20,000 bases of DNA from an uncultured virus (IMG/VR IMGVR_UViG_2775506815_000003) (lineage: Duplodnaviria > Heunggongvirae > Uroviricota > Caudoviricetes): the IMG/VR virus record IMGVR_UViG_2775506815_000003, positions 55,251 to 75,250 of that record. One strand, given 5' to 3'. The notes beneath the pieces are model-generated. The model searched no databases. It was not told the DNA's origin and saw nothing but the letters and a program-made list of their open reading frames with translations. The position numbers and the translations under genes were made by a program. Shown here piece after piece: positions 1 through 19,616 of this stretch (position 1 is its first letter; each line of letters starts with the position of its first letter).

Positions 1-909
1 GCTTATAGCGTGATACACGCTGTAAGTGAAGATTTAAATTTAAAAGATATCACTAAGATAGATATAGGATGTCTACCTTATTGTGATTTGATAACCCATG
101 GATCGCCTTGTCAAGATTTCTCTGTATCGGGAGAAAATAAAGGTGGAGATGAGGGAAGTAATACAAGATCAAGTTTAATGTGGAATACTGTAAGCATAGT
201 AAAACACATTAGACCTCGATATGTGGTGTGGGAGAATGTAAAAAATGTACTATCTAAGACACATGAACATAATTTTGATAAATATATTAATACTCTTAGA
301 AAACTAGGCTATAACAATTATTATAAAGTATTAAATGCTAAAGATTTTAACATACCCCAAAATAGGGAACGTATATTTGTAGTGTCTGTTCGGAATGATG
401 TTAAGATATCAGATACTTGGATAGAAGATATAAATACTAAGGAACTGAGTATGTGCTTAAAAGATATAATAGAACCTATAGAAATGGTTCCAGAAAAATA
501 TTATTTAAGTGAGAGTGTAACTAGTAAGTTAATATATAGACAAAATACTACGGCCAAGAGTGGAATTACAATAGTAGGAGATTTAAATAATAGTGAACTA
601 AAAATGAATAAACGCATATTTTCAACATTAGGCATATGTTCTACTATCCTTACCACTAATCCACCTAAAATATATATAGAAACTCCTACTGATACTGGAT
701 ATAAAATCAGAAAGCTAATGCCAGTAGAGTGTTGGCGGTTGATGGGTTTCAGTGATAAGGATTATTGGAGGGTAAAGGAGACACTAGAGAAAACATTTTA
801 TAAAGGGAAAGATAGGACAGACAGTCAAATGTATAAAATGGCAGGAAATTCCATAGTGGTAAATGTATTAGAGTCTATATTTAAAAGTTTATTAATAGAC
901 CAGGATTAA
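1..909 (+). CDS. DNA (cytosine-5)-methyltransferase, 5'-truncated by the window edge
   Basis: Motifs IV (GSPCQDFS), VI (ENV), VIII (QNRER) and X (GNSI) are present. Motif I is absent and the frame is open from base 1, so the start lies upstream. Confidence 0.95.
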   Translation, partial: AYSVIHAVSEDLNLKDITKIDIGCLPYCDLITHGSPCQDFSVSGENKGGDEGSNTRSSLMWNTVSIVKHIRPRYVVWENVKNVLSKTHEHNFDKYINTLRKLGYNNYYKVLNAKDFNIPQNRERIFVVSVRNDVKISDTWIEDINTKELSMCLKDIIEPIEMVPEKYYLSESVTSKLIYRQNTTAKSGITIVGDLNNSELKMNKRIFSTLGICSTILTTNPPKIYIETPTDTGYKIRKLMPVECWRLMGFSDKDYWRVKETLEKTFYKGKDRTDSQMYKMAGNSIVVNVLESIFKSLLIDQD

Positions 910-925
910 GTTCCTGGTCTTTTTT
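897..925 (+). terminator. Intrinsic terminator after the methyltransferase
   Basis: AGACCAGGA (897-905) and TCCTGGTCT (912-920) form a perfect 9-bp stem, followed by a T run. Confidence 0.85.
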
Positions 926-1098
926 ATTTTTTGCATTCTATTTAAATATTCTGAAATATATTGAGGCAATACAAGAAAAATTATCTTTACATTTAGCCTA
1001 GAACAAGCTTTTATAATAGCACTAATAGAATTCCTATAGTACCATTATATAATCGCTGCAATGGCCTATAAAAGCCTAATATGAGGAAAATGCTCTAT

Positions 1099-1584
1099 TT
1101 AAAAGATATTTTTATAAATTTCATAAAAATGAGAAGAATCATCTAATAAATGACGAATATTTTTGTAATTTTGCCTTGCCGGAGGAGATTCTTCCTTCTC
1201 CCATCTAGAAATAGTTTTTCTATGAACATTTAATAAATCTCCTAATTTCTTTTGGGTTAAATTCAAATTCATTCTTATACTTATAATTTTATTACCATAA
1301 TCACTACTAATAAAATTAAAATAATCATCATATACAATTGAAGGTTTTACTTTAAGGGCTATACAAATTTTATTTATAATATCTATAGAATGCTCTACTA
1401 AATTATTTTCATATCTAATTATAGTAGCTCTATCTAAATTGGATTTAGTGGCTAATTCTTCTTGAGTAAAATTATTAAGTAGTCTATAATATTTGATACG
1501 AGAGCCTATAGTAGATAAATCAGAAATACCCTTTAATAAATTTTGATTGTGATTAAATGTTTCCGTAGTGATACTATTGCCAAT
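1099..1584 (-). CDS. Tandem XRE/HTH regulator reading frame with no start codon upstream of the first HTH (not in the ORF track)
   Basis: Manual translation gives TIGSRIKYYRLLNNFTQEELATKSNLDRATIIRYENN...GNKIISIRMNLNLTQKKLGDLLNVHRKTISRWEKEE, with TAA at 1101-1099. The frame is open back to 1632 with no ATG/GTG/TTG before the internal ATG at 1272. Confidence 0.8.
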   Translation of the reverse strand: MGNSITTETFNHNQNLLKGISDLSTIGSRIKYYRLLNNFTQEELATKSNLDRATIIRYENNLVEHSIDIINKICIALKVKPSIVYDDYFNFISSDYGNKIISIRMNLNLTQKKLGDLLNVHRKTISRWEKEESPPARQNYKNIRHLLDDSSHFYEIYKNIF

Positions 1585-1605
1585 GAAATATTGATGACTA
1601 TAAGG
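1560..1605. other. Putative attR of an upstream sigK-intervening element (core AATGA 1582-1586)
   Basis: sigK similarity begins at AATGA in the (E)NE codons. From memory, this is the position and core of the B. subtilis skin junction. Confidence 0.7.
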
Positions 1606-1674
1606 GCTAATAAAAAATCCAAAATAGAGGTATCATTACAAGAGCCTATAGGAGTAGATAAAGAAGGCAATGAA
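1582..1674 (+). other. sigK: Internal fragment of split sporulation sigma factor SigK
   Basis: NEILMTIRANKKSKIEVSLQEPIGVDKEGNE matches SigK (ENEILM..R..KK....VSL.DPIG.DKEGNEIS), not SigE (EPLNIDWDGNE). Similarity starts and stops abruptly: SDTIA replaces ARCIE upstream and LPLTV replaces ISL.D downstream. Confidence 0.9.
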
Positions 1675-1739: not shown

Positions 1740-3287
1740 CTATTTAGGCAGCTTTGGAAACAAAGTTAGAGTAAATTGGTCATTTCTTTGCTCTTTTTCT
1801 TTTTCATATACGGCAGAATCTAATACAGACTTAAGTAGTTTATTTTTCCTTTCTGGATCATCAGTCTTAGGGTATAGGTCCAATACCTTTTTTACCTTAG
1901 GAATTATATTTCGTTGAGCATCAATTCTTTTTTCTTCATTTTTTATATTTTTAGAAGTATTCTCTATGTTGAATTTAGTGTCATCAATCCTTTGAGCTAA
2001 TAACTGTGACCTTTCTAAATAAGTATTTACATCATAAATTCCTCTTTCAAGTAAATCGTGTAAATTGTTTTTCTGCTTTTCTAATTCTTCTAATTCATTT
2101 TTTAGTCTGCTTAGGGAAAGTTTATGCATTCTTAAAGTATTGTTTGCTTTAGATTTATTTTCCTTGTCTTCTACATTGTCCCATTCAGCTTTATATTCTT
2201 CTAGCCATTCCTCTAGTCCTTTGAGAAGTCTTTGTTCTACAAACTTAAACTTAGAACTTTTATTGTTACAACTAGTGTTATAACAGACTATATGAGGGTC
2301 TATATTGTTGGTATATGGTCTATACACCATAGAAGAACCACATTTTGAACAAATGATAATACCAGCCAAAGGATTAGTTATTTTAGTTTTATATGGCACA
2401 TGGCTTCTCTTTTTAAGGATTTCTTGAGCTTTATCAAATATATCATTACTTATTAATGGTTCATGTTTACCTTTTACACTTATCCATTCTTCACGGGGTA
2501 AACTTTTTACTTCTTTTATTTGTTCAGGATTATCAGATTTTTTATATACTTTCTTTCTCCATTGAATCTTTCCAACATATACTTCATTCTTAATGATATT
2601 TAGGACCAAGTGACTGGACCAGTTTTTTCCCGTGTATGTTTTATACCCTAGCTCGTTCAATTTATTAGCAATTTTACCGCCGCCCATGTTGTGGTTTGCA
2701 TATAAATCAAATATCATTTTAACAATAGGTGCTTGTTCTGGATGTGGAGTTAGAGTTCTGGTTTTCCCTTCACAGACGATTTCATATCCAAAGGGAGGTA
2801 ATGGTCCTAAAAAGTTTCCATCTTCTATAGAACGAACTCTGCCACGTTGTAAACGTCTATTTATTATTTTTAATTCCTTCCTAGCCATAAAAGCTTCAAA
2901 CTCAGAATATTCTTCGTCAAATTCATCTTGAAGGTCATAAGTTTTTCTAGGAGTAATAATTTTTGTGTTAGATTCTTTGAAAGTTTCTAGTATTAAACCT
3001 TGCTCCTGCATATTGCCACGACCTAATCTATCCATGTCCATTACTAGAACTGCATCGTATTCTTTATTCTTGACTTCTTTTAGTAATTCAAGCATTTCAG
3101 GTCTATGAACTAAACTCTCCCCAGAAACTATTTCTTCACGAATCCTTAATATATTAAGGCCTTTCTCCTTGGCCACTTTAAGCAATATTTTTTTATGTTT
3201 AGCTAAAGTTTCACCTTCACCATACTTTTCAGCTTCTTCATCAGCCCTAGACTTACGAAGATACATGCAAATACGATCCATAGTCAT
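1740..3287 (-). CDS. Large serine recombinase (SpoIVCA/CisA-like integrase)
   Basis: Catalytic YLRKS and DRLGR motifs, PFGY recombinase domain, zinc ribbon LAGIIICSKCG...CYNTSC, and a coiled coil. RBS GAGGTG. Uninterrupted 515 aa. Confidence 0.95.
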   Translation of the reverse strand: MTMDRICMYLRKSRADEEAEKYGEGETLAKHKKILLKVAKEKGLNILRIREEIVSGESLVHRPEMLELLKEVKNKEYDAVLVMDMDRLGRGNMQEQGLILETFKESNTKIITPRKTYDLQDEFDEEYSEFEAFMARKELKIINRRLQRGRVRSIEDGNFLGPLPPFGYEIVCEGKTRTLTPHPEQAPIVKMIFDLYANHNMGGGKIANKLNELGYKTYTGKNWSSHLVLNIIKNEVYVGKIQWRKKVYKKSDNPEQIKEVKSLPREEWISVKGKHEPLISNDIFDKAQEILKKRSHVPYKTKITNPLAGIIICSKCGSSMVYRPYTNNIDPHIVCYNTSCNNKSSKFKFVEQRLLKGLEEWLEEYKAEWDNVEDKENKSKANNTLRMHKLSLSRLKNELEELEKQKNNLHDLLERGIYDVNTYLERSQLLAQRIDDTKFNIENTSKNIKNEEKRIDAQRNIIPKVKKVLDLYPKTDDPERKNKLLKSVLDSAVYEKEKEQRNDQFTLTLFPKLPK

Positions 3288-3543: not shown

Positions 3544-4107
3544 ATGAAAGAGCTTATTTGTACAACTTTATTGACAATAATTACCTATACCGCTACGCAG
3601 TTTTTCTCCATAAATAATTCAGCTTTGGAAGCGTTGGTAAATTCAATCCAGTTGTTATCCCAATCTTTTTTATGTGGGTAAGAGTTCCTAAAAATTATCT
3701 AAAAGTTATGTGTTTTAAAAGCGTAAATATAAAATATCTAATAAATATTAAATTAGATGATTGCAAAATCTCTGATACTCATTTTTACTCATTTTAGAGA
3801 AATTAGGCAGGATTTATTGATGTTAGATCAAACAAATGATAGTAGAATACTCAAACAGAATTTTGGAGATATAATGTATTTGTCTACTATTGAAGTAAAT
3901 AATGGAATAATTGATTTGTCATATTATATTGATGAGGGAAGCTTAATTATTCAATCTAAAAATAGAGTTAAATATAAGGTATTCTTTAGAATATCCGAAG
4001 ACCTTTTTCAAAAAGTAAATTCAGTGTTTACTGATAATAAAGGTATTTCATATAACAGTGATAGCGTGAAAAATAATTCGAAGCAAAGCAAAAATGAGTA
4101 TACTTAA
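3544..4107 (+). pseudogene. Probable frameshifted hypothetical gene with a hydrophobic N-terminus
   Basis: A strong RBS and ATG at 3544 give a short ORF (MKELICTTLLTIITY...). Overlapping open frames lead into ORF 3757-4107, which has no clear RBS. Confidence 0.35.
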
Positions 4108-4154
4108 TAAAGGCCTATAAAGGTCTCAAAAATTAAGTTTAATTTTGTTTATAG

Positions 4155-5412
4155 CTATGCCACAGAAATATCCGTATCTTTTATAATACCATTAGAGATT
4201 AATAGTTTTATAGCTTGATTAAGGGCTTTCTCTTTTTGTTTATTCATTAATTCTTGTGGCATATCAATTTTATATAGATCAGAAGGATTCCATACTTCCT
4301 CTGTTACAAACATATTATAAATAGCAGTTAGTATCATCCTCGCTATAACGATAATTGCTCTCTTTTTTCCTCTCCTTTTGTAAATGCATTCATATTTATT
4401 TTTGTAGTAAGGAGATTTGTCCGATTTAACGGCAGTATGGGCAACTTGTACCAATGCTGGTTTGAGGTAAACTCCAGCACGTGTAATTCGAACAGATTTC
4501 TTCTTACCAGCAGATTCATTGTTGCCTGGTGTTAAACCAACCCGGCAACACAAACGCTTAGAGCTGGAAAATTGAGACATACCAATACCAATCTCAGAAA
4601 TAATAGTGATAGCTGAGTCCCTTTTGACCCCGGGAATGGTACATAAAATATTTACATGATTTTCATAGGGCATAATCATCTTATTTAAATTTTCATCAAT
4701 CTCTGCAATTGATGAAGTGACATAATTAAGATGTGATCTAACCATTAATATGCGTTCTTTTTGTTCTTGTGTCATTTGGTAACCTTCAATAGATTCAATT
4801 ACTAGATCTGCTTTTTTCTTTAAGCTTTTTTGTAAAAGTGAAGTACAATAGTCTGGGTTAAATGAATCTGAAGAAATTAGATAGTCTGTGATGGAAGTGG
4901 CAGATTTGCCAAACATGTCGGAAACGACAGCATCAAAGGCTACATTACCAACAGTGAAAGCATTTTGAAATCTATTTTTTTCACTACTTCTACAAGAAAC
5001 AAGTTTTGAACGATGACGAGTATATTCACGAAGAATACTAATTGGCTTACTGGGGATATAAACTTCCAGATACTAAACCTAAACGAAACAGATCACCAAT
5101 CCATTTAGAATCTTTGACATCATCCTTATTACCTTTTATTGCTTTAACCCATTTAGGGTTAGCAATGGTTACGTTGATAGTGTCCTCTAAAATGTTAAAA
5201 ACAGGTATCCAATACTTTCCTGTAGATTCCATGTATACATCATAGCAGTTGTTATCAATAAGCCATTGCTTAAATTGTAAGATGGAATTATTAAAAGTAG
5301 AGAATCTCTTTTTTGAATAATGTGGGGTAATCCCCTGTGAAATGATGATTGTGGCAACGAGAAAAGTTTTATGCACATCGACACCACAACAAATAGGATA
5401 AACAACTTTCAT
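4155..5412 (-). pseudogene. IS110-family transposase, frameshifted near 5060
   Basis: DEDD-domain motifs GVDVHK, MESTG and KDDVKD; C-terminal TIPGV...EIG and ESAGK. The second frame continues YIPSKPISILREYTRHR into ORF 4155-4916. Confidence 0.92.
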
Positions 5413-5533
5413 AGCACAGCCTCCTTTTAAGATAATGAGGAGAAGACATTGACTGAATCGTCACACATATAACTATTAGCTAAAGCAATGATTAGCGTGC
5501 GGACTTTTAGTACCAATTATTTGTGCTTGAAAG

Positions 5534-6210
5534 ATGGTTCTTATTAATAGTGATAAAAGTGAGCAAAAAGATTTCCAATATGATTTATTTCCGGCGCTAA
5601 AGAAGAGCTTGACACAATTAAATAAGGATAGGAAAATAGATTTAATTCTCTTATCTGGCGATTTAATTGATAAGAGAGGAAGGGGATTTGAAAATATAGA
5701 TGTAGCATTTAATCGATTTAGAAAAGAATTTATATTGCCTATTAGTGAAGAGTTGAATATCCCAGAGAATTTATTTATACTAACTCCAGGTAATCATGAT
5801 GTTGATCGAACTAAAATTAACCCTAATACAGATAGGGGTCTTAAAATTAACCTACAAAATACAGATGTTGTTAATAGGGAGATTGAAGAAAATAATCCTG
5901 ATAATATAAGGGGTATATTGTCATATAAAAATTTTGAAAGAGAATTTTATAAAGATAGTGATAATTCAATAATAACTGATTTTCATTCATCACACATAAT
6001 AAATATAGATGGATTGAGGTTTAGTATATCTTGTATAAACTCAGCATGGACATGTTATGAATCAGATGAAACAGATAGGCTGATTATAGGAGATAGACAA
6101 ATAAGTAATGCATATAACGAAATTAAAGATTGTGATGTTAAGATAGCTTTGATGCATCATCATTTTGATTTACTAATAAAGTTTGATAAGCGTGATGTAA
6201 AAAATAAAAT
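5534..6210 (+). pseudogene. Calcineurin-like metallophosphoesterase domain, truncated at both ends
   Basis: SGDLID, PGNHD and MHH motifs are present. The N-terminal DxH and C-terminal GHxH motifs are missing, and the frame runs into the IS3 left end at 6211. Confidence 0.85.
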
Positions 6211-6279
6211 TGGATAGGTTACACTTAATAGGACAGATCTTTACTTAACATGGTACAATAAAATCAGGAGGAGATTTTA

Positions 6280-6554
6280 ATGACCAGGAAACGTTATGAT
6301 GAAGATTTTAAAAGACAGTTAGTAAAGATCTATAACCAAGGAAATCACAGCTATAGAAGCCTTGCTGATGAATATGGTGTAGCTGCCCCTACTATCAGAA
6401 CATGGGTAATGAGATATAATAATTCCCAGTCTTTTAATATAGAAGAAAATAGAACTGAAGAAGATAGAGAATTAATAGAGCTTAGAAAGAAAGTAAAACA
6501 ACTGGAAATGGAGAATGATATCTTAAAGCAGGCAGCACTACTACTAGGCAAAAA

Positions 6555-6558
<4 letters not shown>
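6280..6558 (+). CDS. IS3 transposase OrfA (HTH)
   Basis: RKRYDEDFK...LADEYGV...TIRTWV...[11 protein letters not shown], with RBS AGGAGG. Confidence 0.92.
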
Positions 6559-7417
<859 letters not shown>

Positions 7418-7473
7418 TTTTAAATAAAATCTATGTTAAGTATGATTTTATCTAAAAAGGGGTTGCCAATCCA

Positions 7474-10400
7474 GTATTTAATCCTATTGGTTCATTAAGT
7501 ATAAATAATATTCAATCATTGTTATCAATCAATGGACATCAATTACGACTTCCTAGGATTGAAATTAAAATGAATAGCATAAGAGATCAAATAATTATAA
7601 ATAATAATAAAATTCAACTAATTAATAAAGAGTTTGCAGATTATGTTGTCAGCTATTATTTTAGCAAAAAAGATGTCAAAGAATTTATAAAATGTATTTT
7701 TGATTGGTTTGCACATGGCCAAGAAGTAGAGTATGCTCTAATTGGAGACTTCTTAAGATATGGTAAAAGATATGAAAAAATGAACTACATAAAAATCGAA
7801 GAGTTATTAGATAGGTTTATTAACAAAAAATATGAATTAGGAGATGCAAACTCTTTATTCAAATTAGGCATATATATTTATTATGAATATGCAGAAATGA
7901 AAAATTATGCTATTAAACTTCTTGAAAAAGCTAATGATATGAATAATTTAGATGCTAAAGCTGCATTAGGAATTTGTTATTTAGATGGAAGTAACTTAAA
8001 TGAAATTAATAAAGTAAGAGGCGAAAAATTATTAAGAGAAGTAGTTGTATTAGATAACATTAAGGCTAAAGAAATATTAGGTAACATGTTAATTAAAGGA
8101 AATATAATAAAGAGGAATGAGATTGAAGGGGAGAAGCTTTTAGAAGAAGCTACTCTAAAAGGGAGTAATTTTGCTAAATATACATTAGCTGTGAGAACAT
8201 TATTTGGGTATGGTATAAAAGCTGATTCAGACAAAGGAAAGAAATCACTTTATGAATTAATAGAGGAAAATGATACTAAAGCAATGATTGCACTTGGGGA
8301 AGCGCTAATAGACGGAATTGGTAGTAGTTTTAATGTAGACGAAGGAATAAAGTTATTGAATAATGCCATTGATCTAGGAAATAATAGAGCAAAATTATAT
8401 TTAGCATGTAGATTTGTTTTAGGTGAAGGAGTAGAGCAAGATTGTAGAAAAGGAATAAGAATGGTTGAAGAACTAGCTGAAAAGGGAGAGACAGATGCTA
8501 AACTTTATCTAGCGAATTATTAATTAAAGGAAGATATGTAGATAAAAACGTTGAAAAAGGCTTAGATATATTAAAAAAATTGATGAGAGGTAATAATACA
8601 GATGCTATCATTGTATACTCTAAATTACTTATAGAAGGAAAAGGGATTAATCAGGACATTAATGAAGGAATTAAGTTATTAGAAGATCTAGTAGAGAAAG
8701 ATAATTTAGATGCTATCCATGAATTAGGCAAGTTATTAATAGATGATGAATTTGTCAATAAAAATCCTGAAAGAGGAATAGATTTACTTGAACAAGCTTA
8801 TAGAAAAGGGAATATGGATTCAGGTAGATTGTTAGCTTTTTTCTTAATTAGTGATAGTAATAATTTATACAAAAATAAAGTAAAAGGGAAGAGTATAATA
8901 AATAAGCTAATTGAACAAGGAGATAAAGAGACAAAAACAAGATATGGTATTAGACTTTTAAATATAGGTAAAGAAAAGGAGCTAGGAATTAAGTTGCTAG
9001 AGGATGCTGTAAGTGAAGGAGATTCAAATGCTAAAACTATATTAGCTGACGAGTTAGTGACAGGTAGAACTATAACTCGAGATATAATTAGAGATAGAGA
9101 GCTTTTTGATGAAGCAATTAAATCTGGAAATGTTATTGCATTCAGGATTTTGGGCTATAGGCTTTTGTTTAATGATAGTTTGAAACGAAACTCTAATTAT
9201 GGTTGTAAGCTTTTATTAAGGGGCATAGAACGTGGGGACTCTATGGCTAAAGTCATATTAGGTCATGGCATACTTTTAGGATATGCTGAAAATTATAAAT
9301 TAGAAGAAGGCATAAGATTATTAGAAGAAGCATCATCAGAAGAACTAATTGCATACACTATTTTAGGAGAGTTTCTTGTTAAAGGGATATATATAAGTCA
9401 AAATAAGATTAAAGGAGAGAAATTATTAAACTATGCTTCTGAAAAAGGTAATATTAATGCTACAATGTTACTTATCAAAATGTTATTAGATGGTGAATAT
9501 TTAAAGCAGGATAAAATAAAAGGAGAACAATTGTTGATAGAAGCAGTGGATAAAGGGGAGTGTCAGGCTAAAATCGAATTAGCAAATAGAATAATAAGTG
9601 AAAAAAATTATGAAAAAAATCTCAAAAGAGGTATTGAAATTTTTGAGGAATTAGTTGGAGAGAAAAACAGTGAAGCTATGTTAGAATATGGGAATATGCT
9701 TGTTGAAGGAAGAGATAAAGATATAGATAAGGGAGTAGATATGCTAAGATTAGCAATAAAAAATGGAAGTGCTGAAGCAATGTATGATTTAGGTAATAGA
9801 TTGATTTTTGGAATAGATATTGCTCAAGATAAGAAAAAAGGCTTCGAACTTCTTAAGAAATCAAGTAATGCAGGTAATAAATATGCTAAATTAAATATAG
9901 CAGAAGTTTTAATTAATGGAGAAGTAACTGAAAAAAATACTGATGAAGGACTAAAGTTATTAAATGAATTAATAAACGATGGTTTTAAAGATGCAAGAAG
10001 ACAACTAGCATTTAGATTAATTAAGGGTGATAGAATACCTAAAAATATAGAAAAGGGAAAACAACTTATTGAAGGTCTAATACATGAAGATGATATAAAG
10101 ACTATTATTAAATATGGAGAAATTTTATTAGATGGAGTTTATCTAGAGAAAGATGTAGTAAGAGGGCAAAAATTATTGGAGTTTGCTGAAATGGAGGACT
10201 CCTTTGATGTATCCTATTATATTAGGGAAAAGATATATTAAAGGGGACGGGTTGAAGAAGCATAAATCTAAAGGAACAAAAAAATTTAAGAAGGCAATAG
10301 ATGTGGGAAACATATTAGCAAAATTTGAATATGGTATAAGAATGAAATATGGTATTGATATCCCTAAAAATGTTAAAAAGGGAGAGCAATATATCAAAGA

Positions 10401-10962
10401 AGCTCTATACCAACGAGATAGTAGCAATAAATATGACTTTGGAGTTGTTGCCTATAAACTTAAGGATTATAAAATAGCAGCAGAATTGTTTTATGATGCG
10501 TATAAAAATAACATAAAAATAGCAGGAGTTTCTTTGGCATACATGTCAAGAAGAGATGAGATTAAGGATAAGAAAAGTATTCCAGGTGTTAAAGAACTAT
10601 TACAACCAGAATTAGATGATAATGCTCCTAATGCAAAAATTAATTTGGCTTTGAGTTTAGTTAAAAAGTTTAGTAATAATCAAAATTGGAAAGAAGCTGA
10701 TAAAGTTTTTAGTACCCTAGATTCTTGTGTTTCAGAAATTGAATGGTGGTATGATTATTCTCTACAAGGAGATTATGAAGGAGACTTAGTTCTAGGATGG
10801 ATGGGTAGACATGACTTGATTGATAATTATGATAACATATCTTTTAGTGAACGATTGGATAGAGCGAAGAAAAACGGGTGGGACATTCCAAAATGGATGT
10901 TTCAAAAAAGTCATGGCGAGTGTTTTAAAGCTATGTCTCAGACGGCAGTAAGCAAGGAGTAG
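7474..10962 (+). pseudogene. Large Sel1-like repeat protein split by two frameshifts; N-terminus lost at the IS3 end
   Basis: About 36-aa Sel1 repeats (A...LG..L..G.G...D...G..LL..A...G) run through ORFs 7519-8523, 8580-10241 and 10183-10962. Frame changes occur near 8521 and 10220, and the frame is open back to 7474. Confidence 0.85.
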
Positions 10963-10996
10963 TAATAAAATAGTAAAACCAAATATCTTGAAATTC

Positions 10997-11030
10997 AATC
11001 GGTGTGATTAACTTGGCACCGATTTTTTAT
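10997..11030 (+). terminator. Intrinsic terminator
   Basis: AATCGGTG (10997-11004) and CACCGATT (11017-11024) stem followed by a T run. Confidence 0.8.
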
Positions 11031-11457
11031 TATCTAAAGAACAATATTTGTGGATAAAAAGTTTATATGAATTGACAGTATTAATCCAAAAATATAATAT
11101 AGTCAAAATATAAAATTTTATTGCCTAAAGTCAAAAAAATGGCTTATCTTCGATACTTAGGACGATATGATATTATATTTATAATTTAAGAGAATGTTGA
11201 ACTTGATTTTAAAGATAAAATATTTATTATTAAGTTTTCGTAACAATATATAAAATGGTAGATGTGTATTCCAAGCTATTATTAACAATGATATTTATAT
11301 ATATTTAAGCAATATACTATATATATTGTATTTTCTCCCAAAAATAGTACAATGGAAAACCGTCATTTTAATTCGTTTATGATAAAATTGTATTATAAAT
11401 ATAATTTCAAAATATTAAATGCAAATGATTACTAAGGAAATAAAAAGGCAATATTTA

Positions 11458-11505
11458 TTGCATATAGAACAAATGTTTGCTATAATGTATTTAAACATAC
11501 GTTCG
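11458..11505 (+). promoter_or_regulatory. SigA promoter overlapped by two LexA (Cheo) boxes
   Basis: TTGCAT (11458)-17 bp-TATAAT (11481) with extended -10 TG. GAACaaatGTTT (11467-11478) and AAACatacGTTC (11493-11504) each match 7/8 of GAAC-N4-GTTC. Confidence 0.8.
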
Positions 11506-11537
11506 CCACTGATTACATTATAAAGGGGGTCCTGCTA

Positions 11538-11672
11538 GTGGTGGAGGATACAAAGTACATAGAAATATTAGAACAATTTCTTGATAGATATAAAGAAGAA
11601 AACATTATAGATGTTTATGAAAAAACAGTGTTTAGAATAATGGATTATTTAGAAAAAGCAATTAACTTTTAA
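11538..11672 (+). CDS. 44-aa small protein downstream of the SOS-box promoter (not in the ORF track)
   Basis: RBS AAGGGGG at 11523 and GTG start. Sequence MVEDTKYIEILEQFLDRYKEENIIDVYEKTVFRIMDYLEKAINF. Confidence 0.7.
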   Translation: MVEDTKYIEILEQFLDRYKEENIIDVYEKTVFRIMDYLEKAINF

Positions 11673-11674
11673 TG

Positions 11675-12049
11675 TTAGTTGCTTTTGTTTATTTCATCTA
11701 TTTTTAAAGCTTTTACTATTATTTTAGCTATTTCTTCTTTTGATTTATTTCTCAAATTGAATCCTGCTTTTTCTGCCTCTTTTACAACATAGTCAATGAA
11801 ACTTTCTGACTTAGGAAATTCTTTATCAGATTTGTAATGGATAATATTATCAGTTTTTCCTAGAAGGTAGTCAAGTGAAACATCGTAGTATTCAGCTAGA
11901 AGTCTAACAGTGTCTAAATCAGGTTCGCTTATGCCTCTTTCATACCCAGATAAGGTTTTGTTATTGATACCAGTATCTTTATAGACTTGAGTTTGTGAAA
12001 CTCCTTTGTTTTCTCGTGAAATTTTTAACCTGTCGCTAATTTTCCTCAT
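11675..12049 (-). CDS. XRE-family phage repressor (ImmR/CI-like, no peptidase domain)
   Basis: HTH SQTQVYKDTGINNKTLSGYERGISEPD...VSLDYLLGKTD. RBS AGGAGG. Divergent from a Cro-like gene. Confidence 0.9.
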   Translation of the reverse strand: MRKISDRLKISRENKGVSQTQVYKDTGINNKTLSGYERGISEPDLDTVRLLAEYYDVSLDYLLGKTDNIIHYKSDKEFPKSESFIDYVVKEAEKAGFNLRNKSKEEIAKIIVKALKIDEINKSN

Positions 12050-12086
12050 TTAATTAACCTCCTAACTATATAAAATTATATACCAT

Positions 12087-12153
12087 TTCTTTAAATATAA
12101 GATAAATTTCTTAAAAACAATGAAAATACCATTGGGTTCTTAGAAAATAAGAG
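12087..12153. promoter_or_regulatory. Three 17-bp operators of switch 1 (TTCTTA-N5-TAAGAA type)
   Basis: TTCTTTAAATATAAGAT (12087), TTCTTAAAAACAATGAA (12108) and TTCTTAGAAAATAAGAG (12137). Confidence 0.7.
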
Positions 12154-12169
12154 AATGGAGGTGTAAACA

Positions 12170-12400
12170 ATGAAACAATTGCATGAAATGATAGCGGAAT
12201 ATAGAAAACCTAAAGGCATTACACAAACTTGTATTTCAGAAGTAACGGGAATAGATAATAAAAGAATTAGTAATATAGAAACAGGGAGAGTAGAACTAAA
12301 AGCCGAAGAATTCATATTAATTTGTCAAAAAGGTTTGGGAGTTAGTCCTTCTTTTTTTACAAGTAGATTCTTAGAAACTAAGAAAGATTATTCGGCATAA
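12170..12400 (+). CDS. Cro-like XRE regulator
   Basis: 76-aa HTH (ITQTCISEVTGIDNKRISNIETG), with RBS GGAGGTG. Confidence 0.85.
   Translation: MKQLHEMIAEYRKPKGITQTCISEVTGIDNKRISNIETGRVELKAEEFILICQKGLGVSPSFFTSRFLETKKDYSA
12368..12384. promoter_or_regulatory. Perfectly symmetric operator copy in the 3' end of the cro-like gene
   Basis: TTCTTAG-AAA-CTAAGAA. Confidence 0.7.
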
Positions 12401-12498
12401 TAATTATCATATATGTACAGTTTCAAAAGAAGTAAATTTTGAAGTTAGAGGAAAAGTACTTTGAAAAAAGAATACAGTGGCTGAATGCTTAATCCAGC

Positions 12499-12813
12499 CT
12501 ATTTAATATACTTTCTCTGTTTTGTAAGTTTTCTTTTAAGATGGAACATTTCTTTTTCAGTTTGGAATTCTTTGTGGGTTAGGAAGTCAAGATCATCTGA
12601 TATTTTATTTAATTTGGTATTTGTAGATACATGATTCGCAGCATTTGATCCTTCTAATTCCTGAAATTGATTTTCAAGCTTATCAAAACGAAGGAGAATC
12701 TCTTGATGATTAGAATCAACTTTAGTTTCAAGGTTATCCATTTGACTTTGCATATCGTTCATTTGAACTTGCATTTGAGTTAATAAATTAAGTATTTTTT
12801 CTTCGTTATTCAT
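12499..12813 (-). CDS. Hypothetical coiled-coil protein
   Basis: 104-aa ORF with heptad-like pattern and RBS AAGGAGTG. Confidence 0.75.
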   Translation of the reverse strand: MNNEEKILNLLTQMQVQMNDMQSQMDNLETKVDSNHQEILLRFDKLENQFQELEGSNAANHVSTNTKLNKISDDLDFLTHKEFQTEKEMFHLKRKLTKQRKYIK

Positions 12814-12842
12814 AATAACACACTCCTTATATATATTATAGA

Positions 12843-13148
12843 CTATTTTAGAGTTTTTAAGAACTCTGTAAGGATAGCAAGCTGTTTAGGAGTTAAGTTT
12901 TTAGCATTATCAAGAAGCTCTTTAAGTTCAGGCGTGATAATGGTATCGCTGGAATTGTCATCAAAAAAATTGGATAATGTCATTCCATATACATTTAATA
13001 TATTAGCTAAGGTTTCAATAGTAGGGGTGTTAGAGCCACTTTCTATGTAACTTAAAGACGATTGAGAGATGTTTGCTTTATGGGTAACCTCTTTCATTGT
13101 AAGGTTTTTGCTTTTTCTAATTAGCTTTAATTTTTCATAGTAGTTCAT
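12843..13148 (-). CDS. Second XRE-family repressor
   Basis: HTH LTMKEVTHKANISQSSLSYIESGSNTPTIETL, with RBS GAGGTG. Confidence 0.9.
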   Translation of the reverse strand: MNYYEKLKLIRKSKNLTMKEVTHKANISQSSLSYIESGSNTPTIETLANILNVYGMTLSNFFDDNSSDTIITPELKELLDNAKNLTPKQLAILTEFLKTLK

Positions 13149-13172
13149 TAGGTTTCACCTCAATATAATTGG

Positions 13173-13260
13173 TTCAGTATTCTGATTATATCATATTCTT
13201 TTACTAGAAAGTATCAAAATAATGATTAATAACATCAAGTAATATCATCATAATGATATT
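13173..13260. promoter_or_regulatory. Operators of switch 2 (ATCA-N6-TGAT)
   Basis: TTCAgtattcTGAT (13173), ATCAaaataaTGAT (13213) and AATATCAtcataaTGATATT (13241-13260). Confidence 0.6.
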
Positions 13261-13294
13261 AAGTTTATAAATTTATCAGAAAGGTGTGAGTAAC

Positions 13295-13498
13295 TTGAAG
13301 CTAGGAAAAAAAATTAAATATTGTAGAAAACAATTAAATATGTCTCAAAGAGAATTAGCTGATAAGGCTAAGGTCTGACAATCTTCTTTTCATTACATTG
13401 AAAATGATATTAATAGTCCAACCATATCAAACTTAGATAAAATAGCCAAAGCATCAGGTGTAACAGTAGCAGAGTTGTTAGATGATAAGGCAGTGTAA
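13295..13498 (+). pseudogene. Second Cro-like XRE gene with a nonsense codon (not in the ORF track)
   Basis: TTG start; MKLGKKIKYCRKQLNMSQRELADKAKV*QSSFHYIENDINSPTISNLDKIAKASGVTVAELLD. TGA at 13376-13378 sits where Ser (TCA) is expected. Confidence 0.85.
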
Positions 13499-13724
13499 GT
13501 GGTGGACAGGCCAAAGAACAAGCAAATGTAAAATCAATTATTCAACAAATAGGAAAGAAGATGAATAGTCAATACCTTAAATCTTTTATTCCTGGAAATC
13601 CCTTTAGAGATTAAAACCTATAAGAGATTAATAGGCAAGAAAGGAGATAAAAATTTAGTAGTTATGAAAATATGCGAATAGTACAAACCAGGAATTTAAT
13701 AAAAATATAAAAAGGGGTGAGTCC

Positions 13725-13955
13725 ATGAAGAAATGGAGACATGCAGCAACATATGAATATGCAGCAACATATAAAGGAGGTAAATTTGGGAATACCACAG
13801 TTAATGTTGTAGCACCACCACCTAAATCAGAAGAAGAGATAAAGAGGATACTTGAAGAATATCACCAGGCGGGATGGGACATTTGGGATTCACTTTCAAT
13901 TGAAGAACAAATTCAGATTAACAAAGAAGCTACTGCCGAATCAGGCAAAGGATAA
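13725..13955 (+). CDS. Hypothetical phage protein
   Basis: RBS AGGGGTG and a 76-aa ORF. Contains an in-frame 18-bp-period duplication of ATGCAGCAACATAT (13741, 13759). Confidence 0.7.
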   Translation: MKKWRHAATYEYAATYKGGKFGNTTVNVVAPPPKSEEEIKRILEEYHQAGWDIWDSLSIEEQIQINKEATAESGKG

Positions 13956-14023
13956 AGGACGAGGTTGTCCTTAGGTAATGAAGGAGGACATGCACTTTAA
14001 AAAGAAAGGAGGAAAAGGAAGAG

Positions 14024-14140
14024 ATGAAACAGATTAGATTGGTAGCCTTTACTTGTAAAGCTAGAGATTTATCTTCTAAATTGCAGGAAGAATTGAAGAA
14101 GTTAGAAAGGAAATTAAAACAATCTAAAAAGTTAGCTTAG
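14024..14140 (+). CDS. 38-aa basic hypothetical protein
   Basis: Purine-rich RBS upstream. Sequence MKQIRLVAFTCKARDLSSKLQEELKKLERKLKQSKKLA. Confidence 0.5.
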   Translation: MKQIRLVAFTCKARDLSSKLQEELKKLERKLKQSKKLA

Positions 14141-14183
14141 TTCTTCACTAATTAAATAATATCATGAAAAGAGGCGAATTAGA

Positions 14184-14717
14184 ATGAACTCAAACTATCT
14201 AATTGACTATCAAACACCATGTGAGAGTAAAGGATTAACTAGAAATGATGTAGTTTTACTACTATCAACAAAAGGAATAGAAATTAGCATAGAAAGTCTA
14301 GGTTGCTATGAAAGGGGAATAAGAGAACCTTCACCAGACATGGTAATAGAATTAGCTGATATATACAAAGAACTCTTTCTAACTCAGAAGTATTGTAAAT
14401 TCAACTGTGCTATAGGACAAGCTTATAGCTACGAAATATTAGATAGTATAGACCTAAAAGCTTTAAAGTTACTAGAAGAACATAGAGAGTCATATGAGGT
14501 ATTAGCAGAAACAATAATATTAATTGTAAATAAAGAAACTAAAGAAGATTTTACGGCAGATGAATTAGAAAAGCTTAAGAAAAATGTACATGAGTTGCTT
14601 GATACAGAACATACTATAGAAATTTTTAAGATAGCATTAAATAAGTTTATAGACATGAAAGAAATGATAGCAGAACATAATCAGAAATGCAGGCAAAGAG
14701 GATATGCAAGGGGGTGA
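14184..14717 (+). CDS. Phage XRE/HTH-domain protein
   Basis: ISIESLGCYERGIREPSPDMVIELADIY, followed by a YCKFNCAIG motif. Confidence 0.8.
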   Translation: MNSNYLIDYQTPCESKGLTRNDVVLLLSTKGIEISIESLGCYERGIREPSPDMVIELADIYKELFLTQKYCKFNCAIGQAYSYEILDSIDLKALKLLEEHRESYEVLAETIILIVNKETKEDFTADELEKLKKNVHELLDTEHTIEIFKIALNKFIDMKEMIAEHNQKCRQRGYARG

Positions 14718-14722
14718 AATAA

Positions 14723-15016
14723 GTGCAAGCTGATACGGTTTTTGATCTTCGATATAACATAGCAGATTTGTATATAGCAATTTTAAAGGAAGGTATAGCA
14801 ACACCAGAACAAACTTTTGTAGTTGTCTCCAATACATCAGTTATAAAAGCTACTACATGTGAAGATGTGAAAGACATGATAGGAATGAGAAATCAAGGAT
14901 TAACTTATAAAGAAATAGCTGAAATATATGGTTCAACAGATTCAAATATATATCACAGAATTAAATATAAAGAAAAAAAGACCTTTCAGCCACCAACTGA
15001 AAAGGTCAACAGTTAA
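14723..15016 (+). CDS. Small HTH DNA-binding phage protein
   Basis: MRNQGLTYKEIAEIYGSTDSNIYHRI, with RBS AGGGGGTG. Confidence 0.75.
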   Translation: MQADTVFDLRYNIADLYIAILKEGIATPEQTFVVVSNTSVIKATTCEDVKDMIGMRNQGLTYKEIAEIYGSTDSNIYHRIKYKEKKTFQPPTEKVNS

Positions 15017-15059
15017 AAAAACCATTAACTTATTATACCATATCGGAAGGAGAATTGAA

Positions 15060-15407
15060 ATGGGTAGACATAGTAGTTTTAGACTTAGATGGAGTAGATA
15101 CTATCAGTTTTTAATAGAAAGGCAAATATTCTATTTAAAACTTAAAGCATATAGGAACAAGAGCCAAGGAATGAAAGAGTGGGAAATGATTACAGAACAA
15201 ACATATAGAGACGCAATGAAGAAAAAATATCAGGATAATGTAGTAGCGGTGGAGGAAGAGATAGCACTTATGGATTCATGGCCATTAGCATTAATATTTA
15301 GTGAAGTATATGGCTTAGATGAAGATGACACAATAAGGGCAGTTGCAGAAGGTCAAGAGTCAGTTAGAGAGTTAAGAAAACATGTAAAGATTCCAGTAAA
15401 GCGTTAA
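15060..15407 (+). CDS. Hypothetical phage protein
   Basis: The ATG at 15060 follows AAGGAG, which is a better start than 14928. Confidence 0.6.
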   Translation: MGRHSSFRLRWSRYYQFLIERQIFYLKLKAYRNKSQGMKEWEMITEQTYRDAMKKKYQDNVVAVEEEIALMDSWPLALIFSEVYGLDEDDTIRAVAEGQESVRELRKHVKIPVKR

Positions 15408-15487
15408 CCAAAGCAGAGGCAAACGAAATAATAAATATGCTACAGGCTATGGAGAAATAGGAGAATGATGAAAATGATACATTTTAG

Positions 15488-16282
15488 ACTGGGGCTTTTC
15501 AGATGGATAGAGGAATTTTTCAAAATAGTATTTGGAATAACGTAGCAGAATAGAGAGTATTTTTCTACATTGTTGGGAACGCAGTTTGGAAAGAAGAAGG
15601 AACATATGTAGGAAATATTCACATTAAAAGAGGACAGTATTTAAGGTCTTATAGAAATCTAAGAGAAGATCTAATGTATATGGAAAATAATGCAGTTAAA
15701 TATTACTCAGTTTCATATATAAAAAAGGTTACAGATAAATTAGTTAGTGATGGAAGACTAGAAAAAGAGGAAACAAAGCTGGGAACACTATTTACAATCG
15801 TTAACTACAGTCATTATCAAGGGTTCAATAGATTTGAACAGGTAGACCAAGAACAGAATGAGAACGGACTGAGAACAGCGAAAGAACAGGGTACTGAGAA
15901 CGAAGAAAGAACAGGCGAAAGTCAGGGGGCTATGAACAATAAGAAGAATAAGAATAAAGAAATATATATAGATATAGTCGAGTATCTGAACCAACAAACA
16001 AATAAAAATTTCAAACACACGACTAAGTCAACTGAATCTAAGATAAACGCTAGATTAGAAGAGGAGTTCACTTTAGATGACTTTAAAAAGGTTATTGATA
16101 TAAAAACGAGTGAATGGCTCAACGACGCTAATATGCAAAAGTATCTTAGACCAGAGACTTTGTTTGGGACAAAGTTTGAAAGCTACTTAAATGAAAATAC
16201 GGAGCTGATACACAGGCAGAACCAAATAATCGGAGAAGGAGTGATAGAAGGCTATGATTTCAAAAGACGATCTAAAAATTGA
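15488..16282 (+). pseudogene. Phage replication initiator with conserved phage C-terminal domain; N-terminus cut by in-frame stops (true start uncertain)
   Basis: C-terminal IVEYLN...FTLDDFKKVID...KYLRPETLFGTKFESYLN. The same frame upstream reads GAFQMDRGIFQNSIWNNVAE*RVFFYIVGNA...KRGQYLRSYRNL, with TAG at 15551 and 15485. Confidence 0.8.
15835..15915 (+). repeat. Putative replication-origin iterons inside the initiator gene
   Basis: AGAAC at 15850, 15861, 15872, 15883, 15897 and 15908 (mostly 11-bp spacing), followed by an A-rich tract. Confidence 0.7.
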
Positions 16283-17569
16283 GTGTCAAATAATTGGTTC
16301 GTTTTTAATAGAAAGAGCTACACATGATTTTATATCACATTTAAAGGAAGATGACTTTATAGATGGCACAATCAGAGAATATTCAAGGCAATAATAAAAA
16401 TGAATACCGAACATAAAGAAATAAATATATTCACAGTGCATGAAATATCAAAAGTTCCAATATCACATTTAGCTGATATAACAAATTTGATAGCTAGTAC
16501 ATCTACCATAGAATCTAATATAAAAATATTAAAAGATAAATCTAACAGAAGAAAATTAATTCAAAAAGCTAACAAAATAGCTGAGATGGCAAAGGATAAA
16601 AATATAGACATTGAAACTATAAAAAACAATGCTGCAAAGGAAATTGATGAAATAGAAAACATCACAGATGATGGAGTAGTCACTTTGAAGGAAGCTATGT
16701 TAGAGACTGTAGGAGTCCTAGATAAAAGATATGCAAATAAAAATGACAGGAGCTACTATACGGGATTATCAAAATTAGATAATTCAACAGCTGGGTTACA
16801 TCCGGAAGAATTAACAACCATAGGAGCAAGACCAGGAGTAGGTAAAACGATAATAGGAATGCAAATAGCTCTTAACATAGCAGCAAAAAATAAAAAAGTA
16901 ATGTACACATCATTAGAGATGAGCGTTACCCAGCTATGTGAAAGAATAATATCAGCTAGAGCAAGTGTAAATGGACTAAGGCTAAGACTAGGCGACATTA
17001 AAAATGACGAAGAATGGAAAAGAATCTATAGGGTAGCAAGCCATTTCGCCATGGATAATTTCTTTATAGATAAAACTAGTAGAAATCCACAGCACATAAG
17101 AGCAAAGTTAAGGAAACATAAGCCGGATTTAATTATTATTGATTACCTACAATTACTGCAATCAACCAATAAAGAACAATCTAGAGAAAGAGAAGTAGCT
17201 ACTATAACGAGAGACCTAAAACTTATGAGTTTAGAATTCAAGATACCAATTATAATATTATCTCAGCTTAATAGAAATGCAGAAGGAAATAGACCAACTA
17301 TGGCAGATTTAAGAGAGTCAGGAGCAATTGAACAGGATTCCGATAATATATTCTTTTTACATGAACCTACAGGGAAGGAAGTGGACAAGCTAATAGAGCA
17401 GGGAATATATACACAACAGTTCATAAATCAATTAGAAAAAGAAGATAAAGCATTAAGTCAGTTGATTATAGAAAAGCAGAGAAATGGTCCTGTAGGGACA
17501 TTAGAAATAGTAAAGGTGCCAAGGCTAATGAAATTTGTTGAGATAGAAAGGAGTAACAGAAATGACTAA
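16254..17569 (+). pseudogene. DnaB-like replicative helicase, frameshifted near 16370
   Basis: GARPGVGKT, SLEM, IIDYLQL, LSQLNR, DLRESGAIEQDSD and KQRNGP motifs. The N-terminal domain starts at the RBS-preceded ATG 16254 in a different frame from ORF 16400. Confidence 0.85.
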
Positions 17570-17732
17570 GAATCCAATGGAGATTTTATATAGACACTTT
17601 GGGGAAAATCAGAGGAAGGTTAAGACATGCTAAGCGTATCTAACATATTTTATGAAATGGGACATAAGGAAGAAAAAAGTAAAGATTGTAAAGATGAAGA
17701 AATTAAAAAACTGTTTAAGGAAGTTAATTAAA

Positions 17733-17879
17733 ATGAAGCTTTGTCATAAATGTAATAGCCGAATGGTAGAAGTTAAGTTAATAGATTTAGAAGGCAAGAC
17801 ATATAAGGCCTTAGTATGTACTTATTGTGGACATACCTATAGCAGAGATAAAGCTTTCAATATGGGTAACTTTTTATGA
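17733..17879 (+). CDS. Small zinc-ribbon protein
   Basis: CHKC...CTYC in MKLCHKCNSRMVEVKLIDLEGKTYKALVCTYCGHTY. Confidence 0.55.
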   Translation: MKLCHKCNSRMVEVKLIDLEGKTYKALVCTYCGHTYSRDKAFNMGNFL

Positions 17880-18114
17880 TATAAAAGATTATGGTTTATC
17901 AATCGCAGAAATTAATGAAATAGCAGTTACAAAGCAGTTTAGAAAATCTGGAATTGGTACATATGCTATAGAATATTCAGAGAAAACTGCTAAAATAAGA
18001 GGTGCAAATATTTTTCGTTCAGGTACAGGCTATGGAAATATCCCATCGAAAGAAATTCATGAACACTGTGGATTTAAGCCATATAGGATTGAATATGAAA
18101 AGATATTAGATTGA
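17860..18114 (+). pseudogene. GNAT acetyltransferase C-terminal half
   Basis: Acetyl-CoA motif IAVTKQFRKSGIGT and N.PS......CGF. No N-terminal half and no RBS. Confidence 0.65.
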
Positions 18115-18177
18115 TTAAATTATCTCATAATATCTATATTAAACATCATGTTTGTTAAAACTAAGAATTCTATTGAG

Positions 18178-18216
18178 ATACCGTATTATTCAGAAGTGAG
18201 TTTTACGGTATTTTTA
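18178..18216 (+). terminator. Probable intrinsic terminator
   Basis: ATACCGTA (18178-18185) and TACGGTAT (18204-18211) followed by a T run. The loop is long. Confidence 0.55.
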
Positions 18217-18245
18217 TATTGTAATGAAATTTAGGAGGAATAGCT

Positions 18246-18437
18246 ATGGAGATACAAAAGCAGTATAATCAATCAAAGAAACAAAATTTAAAAAGTGAGA
18301 TGATAGGTCACATAGACGATATATTAGATGTAGCAGAGGGTATAAAAAGCCTTGATTTCTTCACTATAGAAATTAAGGTTCACAATGGGGAATTAAATGC
18401 TAATTGCACTTTAAAGAATAAGAAGAAGGTGTACTAG
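18246..18437 (+). CDS. Hypothetical phage protein
   Basis: RBS AGGAGG and a 63-aa ORF that overlaps the next start by one base. Confidence 0.75.
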   Translation: MEIQKQYNQSKKQNLKSEMIGHIDDILDVAEGIKSLDFFTIEIKVHNGELNANCTLKNKKKVY

Positions 18438-19120: not shown

Positions 19121-19147
19121 ATAAGTCTTACTGTACCTAGACAGCGG

Positions 19148-19187
19148 ACACCAAGATTACTTAATTGTAGTTGAAGTGTCTTTTTTA
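19148..19187 (+). terminator. Possible intrinsic terminator
   Basis: GACAC...GTGTC imperfect hairpin followed by TTTTTT. Confidence 0.45.
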
Positions 19188-19285
19188 TTACTTGTTAAAC
19201 GTTGAATAAAGTATTTTGCAGTTTTATTACAATTTTATCAAGTGAAGAAGTTACATAATATAAAGTTTACCATTAGGAGGATAAT

Positions 19286-19567: not shown

Positions 19568-19616
19568 TTAGGAATAGTTGAAAGGCAGATAGAAGAGACT
19601 AGGAGGGGCGAGCATT

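Follow-up and report, generated by a model that had tools for sequence, protein, structure and literature searches.

The gene for a tandem-HTH regulator at the right end of a prophage inserted in sigK, here designated E1, appears to be split when the phage integrates, and would be whole and expressed only on the non-integrated circle, where it would be coupled to the integrase gene. We estimate the probability of this reading at roughly 0.7. Three features of the locus suggest it: (i) in the integrated state, the HTH frame runs open through the att core and lacks a start codon ahead of its first HTH domain, (ii) joining of the two ends of E1 brings an in-frame ATG in front of this frame, and (iii) both the start-less and the complete arrangement appear in natural contigs. 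Positions given without a contig name refer to the window, the whole 20,000-nt stretch of DNA that was analyzed (G000:C14:434214-454213).

Two elements interrupt sigK

A search with the sigma-K model identified sigK as three co-linear pieces on C14, at 378641-378946, 435780-435917 (about 1567-1704 in the window) and 462414-462683, and found no intact sigK elsewhere in the genome. Thus, two elements interrupt one sigK gene. The first element, E1, comprises 56,863 bp between common AATG cores at C14:378932 and 435795 (window 1582-1585), so that window positions 1-1585 are its right end. The second element, E2, comprises 26,538 bp between AATGAA cores, the left one at 435882 and the right one outside the window (Table 1). 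The sequence containing E1 and E2 is interrupted by single N's only, and therefore holds no scaffold gaps.

E1 starts at its left end with a minus-strand gene for a 545-aa large serine integrase with the Resolvase, Recombinase, and Zn_ribbon_recom domains. Among the 73 ORFs scanned, this gene is followed by accessory genes, a divergent HTH pair, Gam, RecT, a replication initiator, terminase and portal genes, and then by head and tail genes, the tape measure, holin, endolysin, and a C-5 methyltransferase; the tandem-HTH gene comes last, on the minus strand beside attR. By this inventory, E1 looks like a complete temperate siphophage-like prophage. Its left arm (G000:C14:381003-384868, equivalent to L009:5003-8868) carries defence-like cargo, namely a 'Beta protein' (PF14350), a peptidoglycan-binding protein, and an Mrr_cat nuclease fused to FtsK/SpoIIIE with a gamma domain.

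The genes of E2 (window 3757-20000 and L012:1-8400) encode broken IS110-family and IS200 transposases, three XRE proteins, Sel1/TPR proteins, a DnaB-like helicase, Phg_2220_C, and a nucleoside deoxyribosyltransferase. No structural or virion genes were found in the gene content of E2, which is apparently a decayed, phage-derived, skin-like remnant.

The two serine-recombinase elements lie only about 90 bp apart within sigK (window 1582-1674). The same double occupancy was observed in Marinisporobacter balticus (L051) and in a Clostridia MAG (L054), where the HTH gene is followed by about 40 sigK codons and an E2-like recombinase gene; the products of the latter are 61-65% identical to the recombinase of E2. 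A poor search of open-access papers and preprints found nothing relevant on a sigK gene carrying two elements.

Table 1. Features of the window at the junction of E1, sigK and E2
Feature	Position	Strand	Remarks
C-5 cytosine DNA methyltransferase gene of E1, 3' part	1..909	+	convergent with the HTH gene
Terminator-like hairpin	897..920	+	between the convergent methyltransferase and HTH genes
Decapitated tandem-HTH regulator ORF (putative)	1099..1584	-	161 codons, from the att core to TAA 1101-1099; lacks the start and the first 10 codons
Second XRE-type HTH domain, approximate limits	1138..1296	-	second HTH_3 stretch; HTH_Crp_2 120-143; MqsA_antitoxin 113-159
Sole ATG/GTG/TTG of the open frame	1270..1272	-	ATG, codon 121, between both domains
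First XRE/HTH_3 domain	1339..1497	-	best HTH_3 stretch, residues 46-98 of the 177-residue translation
Phage-derived half of E1 attR	1556..1585		outer repeat arm 1556-1565 (AATGTTTCCG, + strand; T-E-T-F in the HTH frame) and core AATG 1582-1585
sigK middle fragment, about 30 codons	1582..1674	+	...EILMTIRANKKSKIEVSLQEPIGVDKEGNE...; between both element cores; TIGR02846 positions 106-151
In-frame TGA closing the HTH frame upstream	1633..1635	-	inside the antisense of the sigK middle fragment
attL core of E2, AATGAA	1669..1674		right end of E2 outside the window, at C14:462420
Large serine recombinase gene of E2, 515 aa	1740..3287	-	co-directional with the HTH frame

A tandem-HTH frame without a start codon

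Scanning of the window showed that the minus-strand frame is open for 177 codons between the upstream TGA and the terminal TAA. HTH_3 (PF01381) matches it in two stretches (E 9.4e-21, 74 bits versus the cut-off of 23), which places the product in the XRE / Cro-C1 type, and further HTH models of Pfam match residues about 113-165 of the 177-residue translation. Ahead of the first HTH domain, the open frame contains no ATG, GTG or TTG, and no GGAG, GAGG or AGGA precedes any of its codons there; the methionine at codon 121 is not kept as M among the homologues. Upstream, the frame crosses the core and extends over 16 further codons that are antisense to the middle fragment of sigK. The frame scan and the two HTH_3 matches thereby confirm the first-pass annotation, which had described a frame of about 160 codons with two XRE domains that runs through the att core and has no canonical start or ribosome-binding site before the first HTH.

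Reconstruction of attP and attB

The right end of E1 was joined by script to its left end at the common core. On the minus strand of the resulting attP, the integrase gene ends with ...GADSRKK-TAA, and this TAA forms TAATG with an overlapping ATG of the HTH frame. A second in-frame ATG is located two codons past the first one, and an in-frame stop is located three codons upstream of the first one; no in-frame stop separates the far end of E1 from the HTH frame across the rebuilt attP. The left end of E1 provides the ten codons M-E-M-F-P-Q-C-D-Y-S, and the window side continues with I-G-N-S-I-T-T-E-T-F. The attP itself is a 54-bp imperfect palindrome that has the outer arms AATGTTTCCG and CGGAAACATT and extends from the integrase stop to the T-E-T-F codons. 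Large serine integrases are expected to use an imperfect palindromic attP of roughly 50 bp; in E1, as in the natural contig L072 described below, such a palindrome lies next to a gene with the Resolvase, Recombinase, and Zn_ribbon_recom domains.

The first-pass annotation had proposed that attP could bring an in-frame start, with a ribosome-binding site, or else a fusion to the HTH frame without an intervening stop. In silico, this central prediction is borne out, as the start was found and no stop interrupts the frame. No Shine-Dalgarno motif precedes the attP-arm ATG in the E1 phage or in L072, and a fusion of the integrase with the HTH protein was rejected, as their frames differ and stops intervene. 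The HTH gene on the rebuilt circle is instead a predicted second cistron behind the integrase gene.

At attB, the E1 join at AATG connects ...CIEN to EILM... and gives ...TYAARCIENEILM... of sigma-K. When E1 and E2 are both removed in silico, an uninterrupted sigma-K reading of 225 residues is obtained. The expectation that the same crossover would rebuild sigK was not upheld, since excision of E1 alone is insufficient and E2, with its core at 1669-1674, still interrupts the gene. The in-silico attP of E2 is a clean palindrome with no ORF across it, and hence E2 has no comparable split gene.

Both rebuilt attB sites contain AATGAAATAT, corresponding to the codons N-E-I of ...ENEIL... and ...GNEIS... 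(window 1578-1595 and 1665-1674). The recombinases of E1 and E2 are only about 23% identical (tblastn), and the motif common to their attB sites could reflect convergent targeting or chance.

Integrated and attP forms among homologues

Searches of the protein database yielded 31 homologues with the 161 residues of the window as query and 88 with a profile. In 8 of the 31, and later in 11 of the 88, the protein begins with the attP-arm start M(EM)FP, and I-T-E-T-F comes after residues that vary between the proteins. The corresponding nucleotide arrangement was observed in two metagenome contigs. In L072, the gene for an integrase 79% identical to that of E1 ends with TAA and is followed, after 2 nt, by ATG, MFPLCVYSISNSNITETF... 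and the whole HTH gene, the intact product of which is identical to the database protein P0015. In L073, the integrase is 51% identical and its gene again ends with TAATG, with GGAG located 8 nt upstream.

The integrated counterpart of L072 is provided by a third contig, L071. The two are 98.1% identical over 1132 bp, beginning exactly at the core CATT; past the core, L071 continues as antisense sigK and L072 as the integrase gene. The first 90 codons of the L071 frame contain no ATG, GTG or TTG. As judged from this pair, nearly the same phage occurs in nature both integrated, with the gene lacking its start, and in the circular form, with the gene complete.

The integrase stop overlaps the HTH start in two of the three attP forms that have the arm repeat, and a 2-nt gap separates them in the third; the integrase and HTH genes are adjacent in every attP-form locus. 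No terminator was seen between the two genes of L072.

Other sequence collections were less productive. A tblastn search of 50,697 phage records yielded 7 partial generic XRE matches among cultured phages, none of which covers 80% of the query. The phages with the closest integrases (44-46% identity: Clostridium phage HM T, Terrisporobacter phage TPELB_ph1, and CP51) have no HTH gene behind the integrase gene and no att motif. Only two of the 34 IMG/VR loci are true homologues; both are cut at the prophage border and are therefore uninformative on the upstream flank. Among the genomes of 40 relatives, the HTH gene is present in three, one copy containing stops and one being a fragment (G016, G009), a patchy distribution as expected for a mobile element.

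Position of the att site across genomes

We examined 20 genome loci with the HTH gene (L047-L066, of 24 returned; the last four, being weak XRE matches, were left out). The HTH gene abuts the 3' part of sigK, in antisense and at the same site, in nine of them, and abuts sigK at a deeper point in L061. In three loci, the 5' part of sigK is located upstream on the same strand in another frame, i.e. in reversed orientation. The two loci L051 and L054 have the double arrangement described above. The remaining loci are L058, with an E1-like integrase directly upstream, three loci at contig edges, and one fragment. The check suggested in the first-pass annotation, whether homologues also abut att sites, had a positive outcome: the HTH gene abuts an att site in sigK in 15 of the 17 genome loci having an upstream flank.

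Eighteen foreign homologous loci carry the 11-mer ACGGAAACATT at the corresponding position, and the attP-form contig L072 has two copies in inverted arrangement. In the window it occupies 1556-1566, and it is invariant, third codon positions included, even where the protein identity of the homologues is as low as about 40%. We regard this motif within coding sequence as a candidate for the site recognized by this clade of integrases.

A more distant subgroup (L059, L063, L064 and L079, about 2950-3080 in each) uses the same sigK codons in the opposite orientation. In this reversed subgroup, the 5' part of sigK, and hence the mother-cell promoter, reads into the HTH gene in another frame. Four proteins of the group start within sigK sense codons, and P0051 and P0069 have an in-frame ATG derived from sigK's own R-C codons.

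Five other proteins (P0030, P0044, P0046, P0048, and P0053) start with MHQN..., which is the antisense of the sigK codons L-M-H. These host codons contain the palindrome ATGCAT, which yields an in-frame antisense ATG seven codons before the core, that is, a start supplied by the host when the phage is integrated. In the E1 host genome, the corresponding sigK codons are M-T, and there is no host-supplied start. Because the flank supplies an in-frame ATG in some integrated copies, restriction to the circle is not universal in the family; the strict circle-only state would apply to the E1 phage and some relatives.

The locus L058 of Anaerosolibacter carboniphilus (L058:1375-3441) has an integrase 49% identical to that of E1 encoded directly upstream of the HTH gene, and its arm has neither an ATG nor the outer repeat. 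This pair, which may represent a module that was stranded or domesticated, is contiguous in a 115-kb chromosomal contig with non-phage flanks encoding TPR, PdaC-like and rubrerythrin-like proteins.

Protein model

The natural full-length homologue P0008 was modelled with AlphaFold2 from the alignment of 31 sequences. The mean pLDDT of the model is 85, with both HTH domains above 90. The attP-encoded residues 2-13 have pLDDT below 50 and are predicted to be disordered, and residues 14-31 form a weakly supported helix. The closest solved sequences are those of R-M controller proteins (3clc, E 3e-8; C.Esp1396I), P22 C2, SinR, and HipB. The fold search returned single-domain XRE matches only, with TM (target) of 0.7-0.9, and gave no two-domain template or functional hint. 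According to this model, the HTH protein is a predicted DNA-binding protein with two covalently linked reading heads, and the attP-encoded leader is probably just a leader, dispensable for the fold.

Frame maintenance and candidate internal starts

Comparison of 25 unique loci over the 28 codons before the first HTH revealed that (i) the three frames contain 8, 35 and 83 stops, (ii) the 8 stops of the HTH frame are all located beyond the core, in flanking DNA, and none lies between the core and the HTH, and (iii) insertions between the core and the HTH stay in frame (two codons in P0022, P0023, and P0030). The dN/dS ratio is 0.11-0.38 in eight pairs, start-less copies included, and two further pairs are saturated. 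We find it hardly credible that the HTH frame is a functionless, decaying remnant that is open by chance. Such a remnant would account for the missing start and ribosome-binding site in the E1 genome and for the matches with stops or in fragments in G016 and G009, but it is at odds with the dN/dS values, with the 0 in-frame stops from core to HTH versus 35 and 83 stops in the other frames, with the intact full-length forms in nature, and with the complete look of the E1 prophage.

The 23 codons before the HTH contain no ATG, GTG or TTG in 8 of 23 loci. The other 15 loci contain 18 candidate internal starts, with positions varying from codon -3 to codon -22. None of the 18 has a GGAG, GAGG or AGGA at -18..-4, versus 32 of 53 crude ORF starts in E1. 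In many homologues, an internal ATG is found at the codons matching window 1537-1535 (TTA here) or 1566-1564 (ACG here). Gene callers start many homologues at internal M codons, and about a third of the database proteins start from the M-L-K position. A start of homologues at an internal codon had been named in the first-pass annotation as evidence against completion of the gene on the circle; many homologues are indeed annotated in this way, from an internal ATG, but the candidates without a Shine-Dalgarno core and the loci without a candidate leave this objection only partly in force.

According to a rival explanation that we consider unlikely, the gene is expressed in lysogens from a start of its own next to attP, located at the M-L-K or M-E-T-F position. 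The window copy would then have lost its start (TTA, ACG) and be a young pseudogene, or use a non-canonical start, and the open frame would be a by-product of the integrase-binding palindrome. A point against the preferred reading is that conservation of the attP-arm ATG can be explained at the DNA level alone, because this ATG is part of the integrase-binding inverted repeat. The internal ATG, GTG or TTG codons of the 15 loci could be real SD-independent starts allowing expression in the lysogen, and an own start would also suit the annotation of most database homologues from internal M codons, the disordered leader, which the fold probably does not need, and the arm of L058 without an ATG. 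It does not agree with the variable positions of the candidates, with the complete lack of Shine-Dalgarno cores among them, or with the 8 loci that have no candidate. A start at M-L-K does not require a frame open to the core, as observed in all 25 unique loci, and the purifying selection covers start-less copies; the annotated starts, in turn, are forced on gene callers whenever the contig is the integrated form. The absence of in-frame stops, the lack of Shine-Dalgarno motifs at the internal starts, and the low dN/dS together argue for a functional gene whose translation begins upstream of the core. Such translation is possible only in the attP form, which returns us to the preferred reading of a gene completed on the circle.

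Proposed mechanism

The 54-bp attP would lie within the first ~19 codons of the tandem-HTH gene, directly behind the integrase gene, and integration would cut the HTH gene after codon 10. We propose that the resulting switch has the following states: (i) in the lysogen, the start, the ten leading codons, and the integrase cistron with its promoter would stay at attL, 56.9 kb away (C14:378932-380601 and upstream), and the gene body would stay at attR (window 1099-1584) behind antisense sigK, which offers no start, (ii) on the circle, after infection or excision, the ends would join, the integrase TAA would overlap the in-frame ATG (TAATG), and the regulator gene would become the second cistron of the integrase operon, translated most likely by termination-reinitiation coupling, and (iii) the regulator would be produced only from non-integrated phage DNA, and would then act on phage promoters as a two-domain (pseudo-dimeric) XRE protein.

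We infer that on the circle the HTH gene is co-transcribed with the integrase gene and coupled to it in translation, and that it is silent in the lysogen. Co-transcription is suggested by the lack of room for a terminator between the genes, in line with the L072 contig. Promoter-like sites are at or below the level of shuffled controls (12 versus 15.8 in the window and 20 versus 24.2 in L072), no motif is common to the integrase upstream regions of the E1 phage and L072, and the search for operator-like repeats in the E1 early region returned only AT-rich noise. Five public sequencing runs were found, the best with a share of words of 0.08, and none contains the E1 locus.

As to the targets of the regulator, our guess is that it controls early genes of the phage, or else the integrase operon, while the phage DNA is circular, in preference to a role in recombination. 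No RDF was identified for E1; such a factor is needed in the integrated state to turn the integrase to excision. The integrated HTH copy has no start codon, and therefore the regulator is not expected to start excision; nor is it expected to block integration, because it would be made 1:1 with the integrase on the circle. The same points bear on another alternative, in our opinion quite improbable, that the HTH protein is an accessory factor of the integrase, produced 1:1 with it on the circle, and modulates synapsis or blocks a second recombination by way of the integrase or attP. The overlapping or nearly overlapping stop and start codons in the arm-repeat attP forms, the constant adjacency of the two genes, and the position of attP inside the HTH gene are all compatible with such a factor. 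However, sequence and model depict ordinary XRE domains with the above-mentioned regulators as nearest relatives, and a protein that is obligatorily co-produced on the circle cannot be an inhibitor of integration and would be missing at the onset of excision. A regulator of phage promoters that is completed on the circle is the reading that we retain.

Implications

A temperate phage has to register whether or not it is integrated. If this reading is true, expression of the E1 regulator is tied to the circular state. The E1 locus would add a simple, compact design to the switches hard-wired at att sites, in which the attP of a serine integrase also provides the 5' coding sequence of a regulator, the start of which overlaps the integrase stop. 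The phages concerned reside in sigK, where excision also decides on the completion of host sporulation, and the regulator is thus a candidate link between the phage state and host development. For genome annotation, the locus is a warning that prophage genes beside att sites can appear start-less or be assigned false internal starts.

In a broader form that we advance only tentatively and with more doubt than confidence, the sigK-targeting phages of Tissierellia/Clostridia would use attP as the first ~19 codons of an integrase-coupled regulator that senses chromosome versus circle and mirrors integration-dependent immunity. Were this true, the regulator would be off in the lysogen and on within one translation round after excision or infection. 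Excision, whether it follows induction or takes place in the sporulating mother cell, could then be connected through the regulator with the decision for lytic growth, silence, or re-integration.

Comparison with known systems

To our knowledge, few hard-wired switches have been described in which the att site itself alters a gene product, namely integration-dependent immunity, splitting of SSV integrases, and junction promoters. In open-access papers and preprints, we found no account of a regulator gene that spans attP behind a serine integrase.

In the mycobacteriophages BPs, Brujita and their relatives, attP is located inside the 3' part of the repressor gene beside the integrase gene, and integration strips a C-terminal degradation tag, which yields stable, active repressor in the lysogen; viral and prophage genomes thus encode different forms of the protein (PMC3694055). 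As far as this system is outlined there, E1 resembles it in that attP lies inside the coding sequence of a regulator, the integrase gene is adjacent, and the gene structure reports the integration state. The logic is reversed, however: the 3' cut activates the repressor, whereas the 5' cut in E1 removes the start and the upstream cistron. E1 loses the 5' end of the gene and not the 3' end, so that no degradation tag is removed. E1 differs further in its tandem XRE regulator, its host site in sigK, and its large serine recombinase.

In the SSV-type archaeal integrases, the tyrosine-integrase gene itself contains attP and is split on integration (PMC7253208). In both systems, to the extent that this source details the archaeal one, integration divides one of the element's genes, which is complete only in the circular form. 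The gene divided in SSV is the integrase gene itself, whereas the integrase ORF of E1 (545 aa) is left intact; attP starts at the stop codon of this ORF, and it is the following gene that becomes divided.

In ICEclc, the Pcirc promoter is placed before the intact integrase gene on the circle, boosting its expression (PMC5812530). E1 has a Pcirc-like geometry, with the integrase gene and its upstream region placed in front of the HTH gene after circularisation. Within the account given in that paper, the likeness is that joining of the ends puts signals of one end before a gene at the other end; the difference is that Pcirc makes a transcriptional fusion, whereas in E1 the coding sequence itself would be completed and coupled to the upstream cistron. 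Apart from ICEclc, junction effects of a comparable kind are known from Tn916 and from IS elements, and the sib retroregulation of lambda is a further case.

The host site, finally, connects E1 with skin of Bacillus subtilis and with skinCd, sigK-intervening prophage elements with a large serine recombinase, the excision of which rebuilds the gene (PMC5025042). A functional sigK phage is PhiS63 of Clostridium perfringens, and SPbeta in spsM behaves likewise (PMC3442830, PMC4191935, PMC5595907). Like these, E1 is a serine-recombinase prophage, intact or remnant in the individual cases, within a mother-cell sporulation gene. The passages of these papers that deal with the elements describe no attP-spanning gene, whereas the locus analyzed here has two elements in sigK and an apparently split phage regulator. 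Taken by its structure, the E1 arrangement is a putative variant of the integration-state-dependent gene switches, with candidate expression and a candidate role on the circle.
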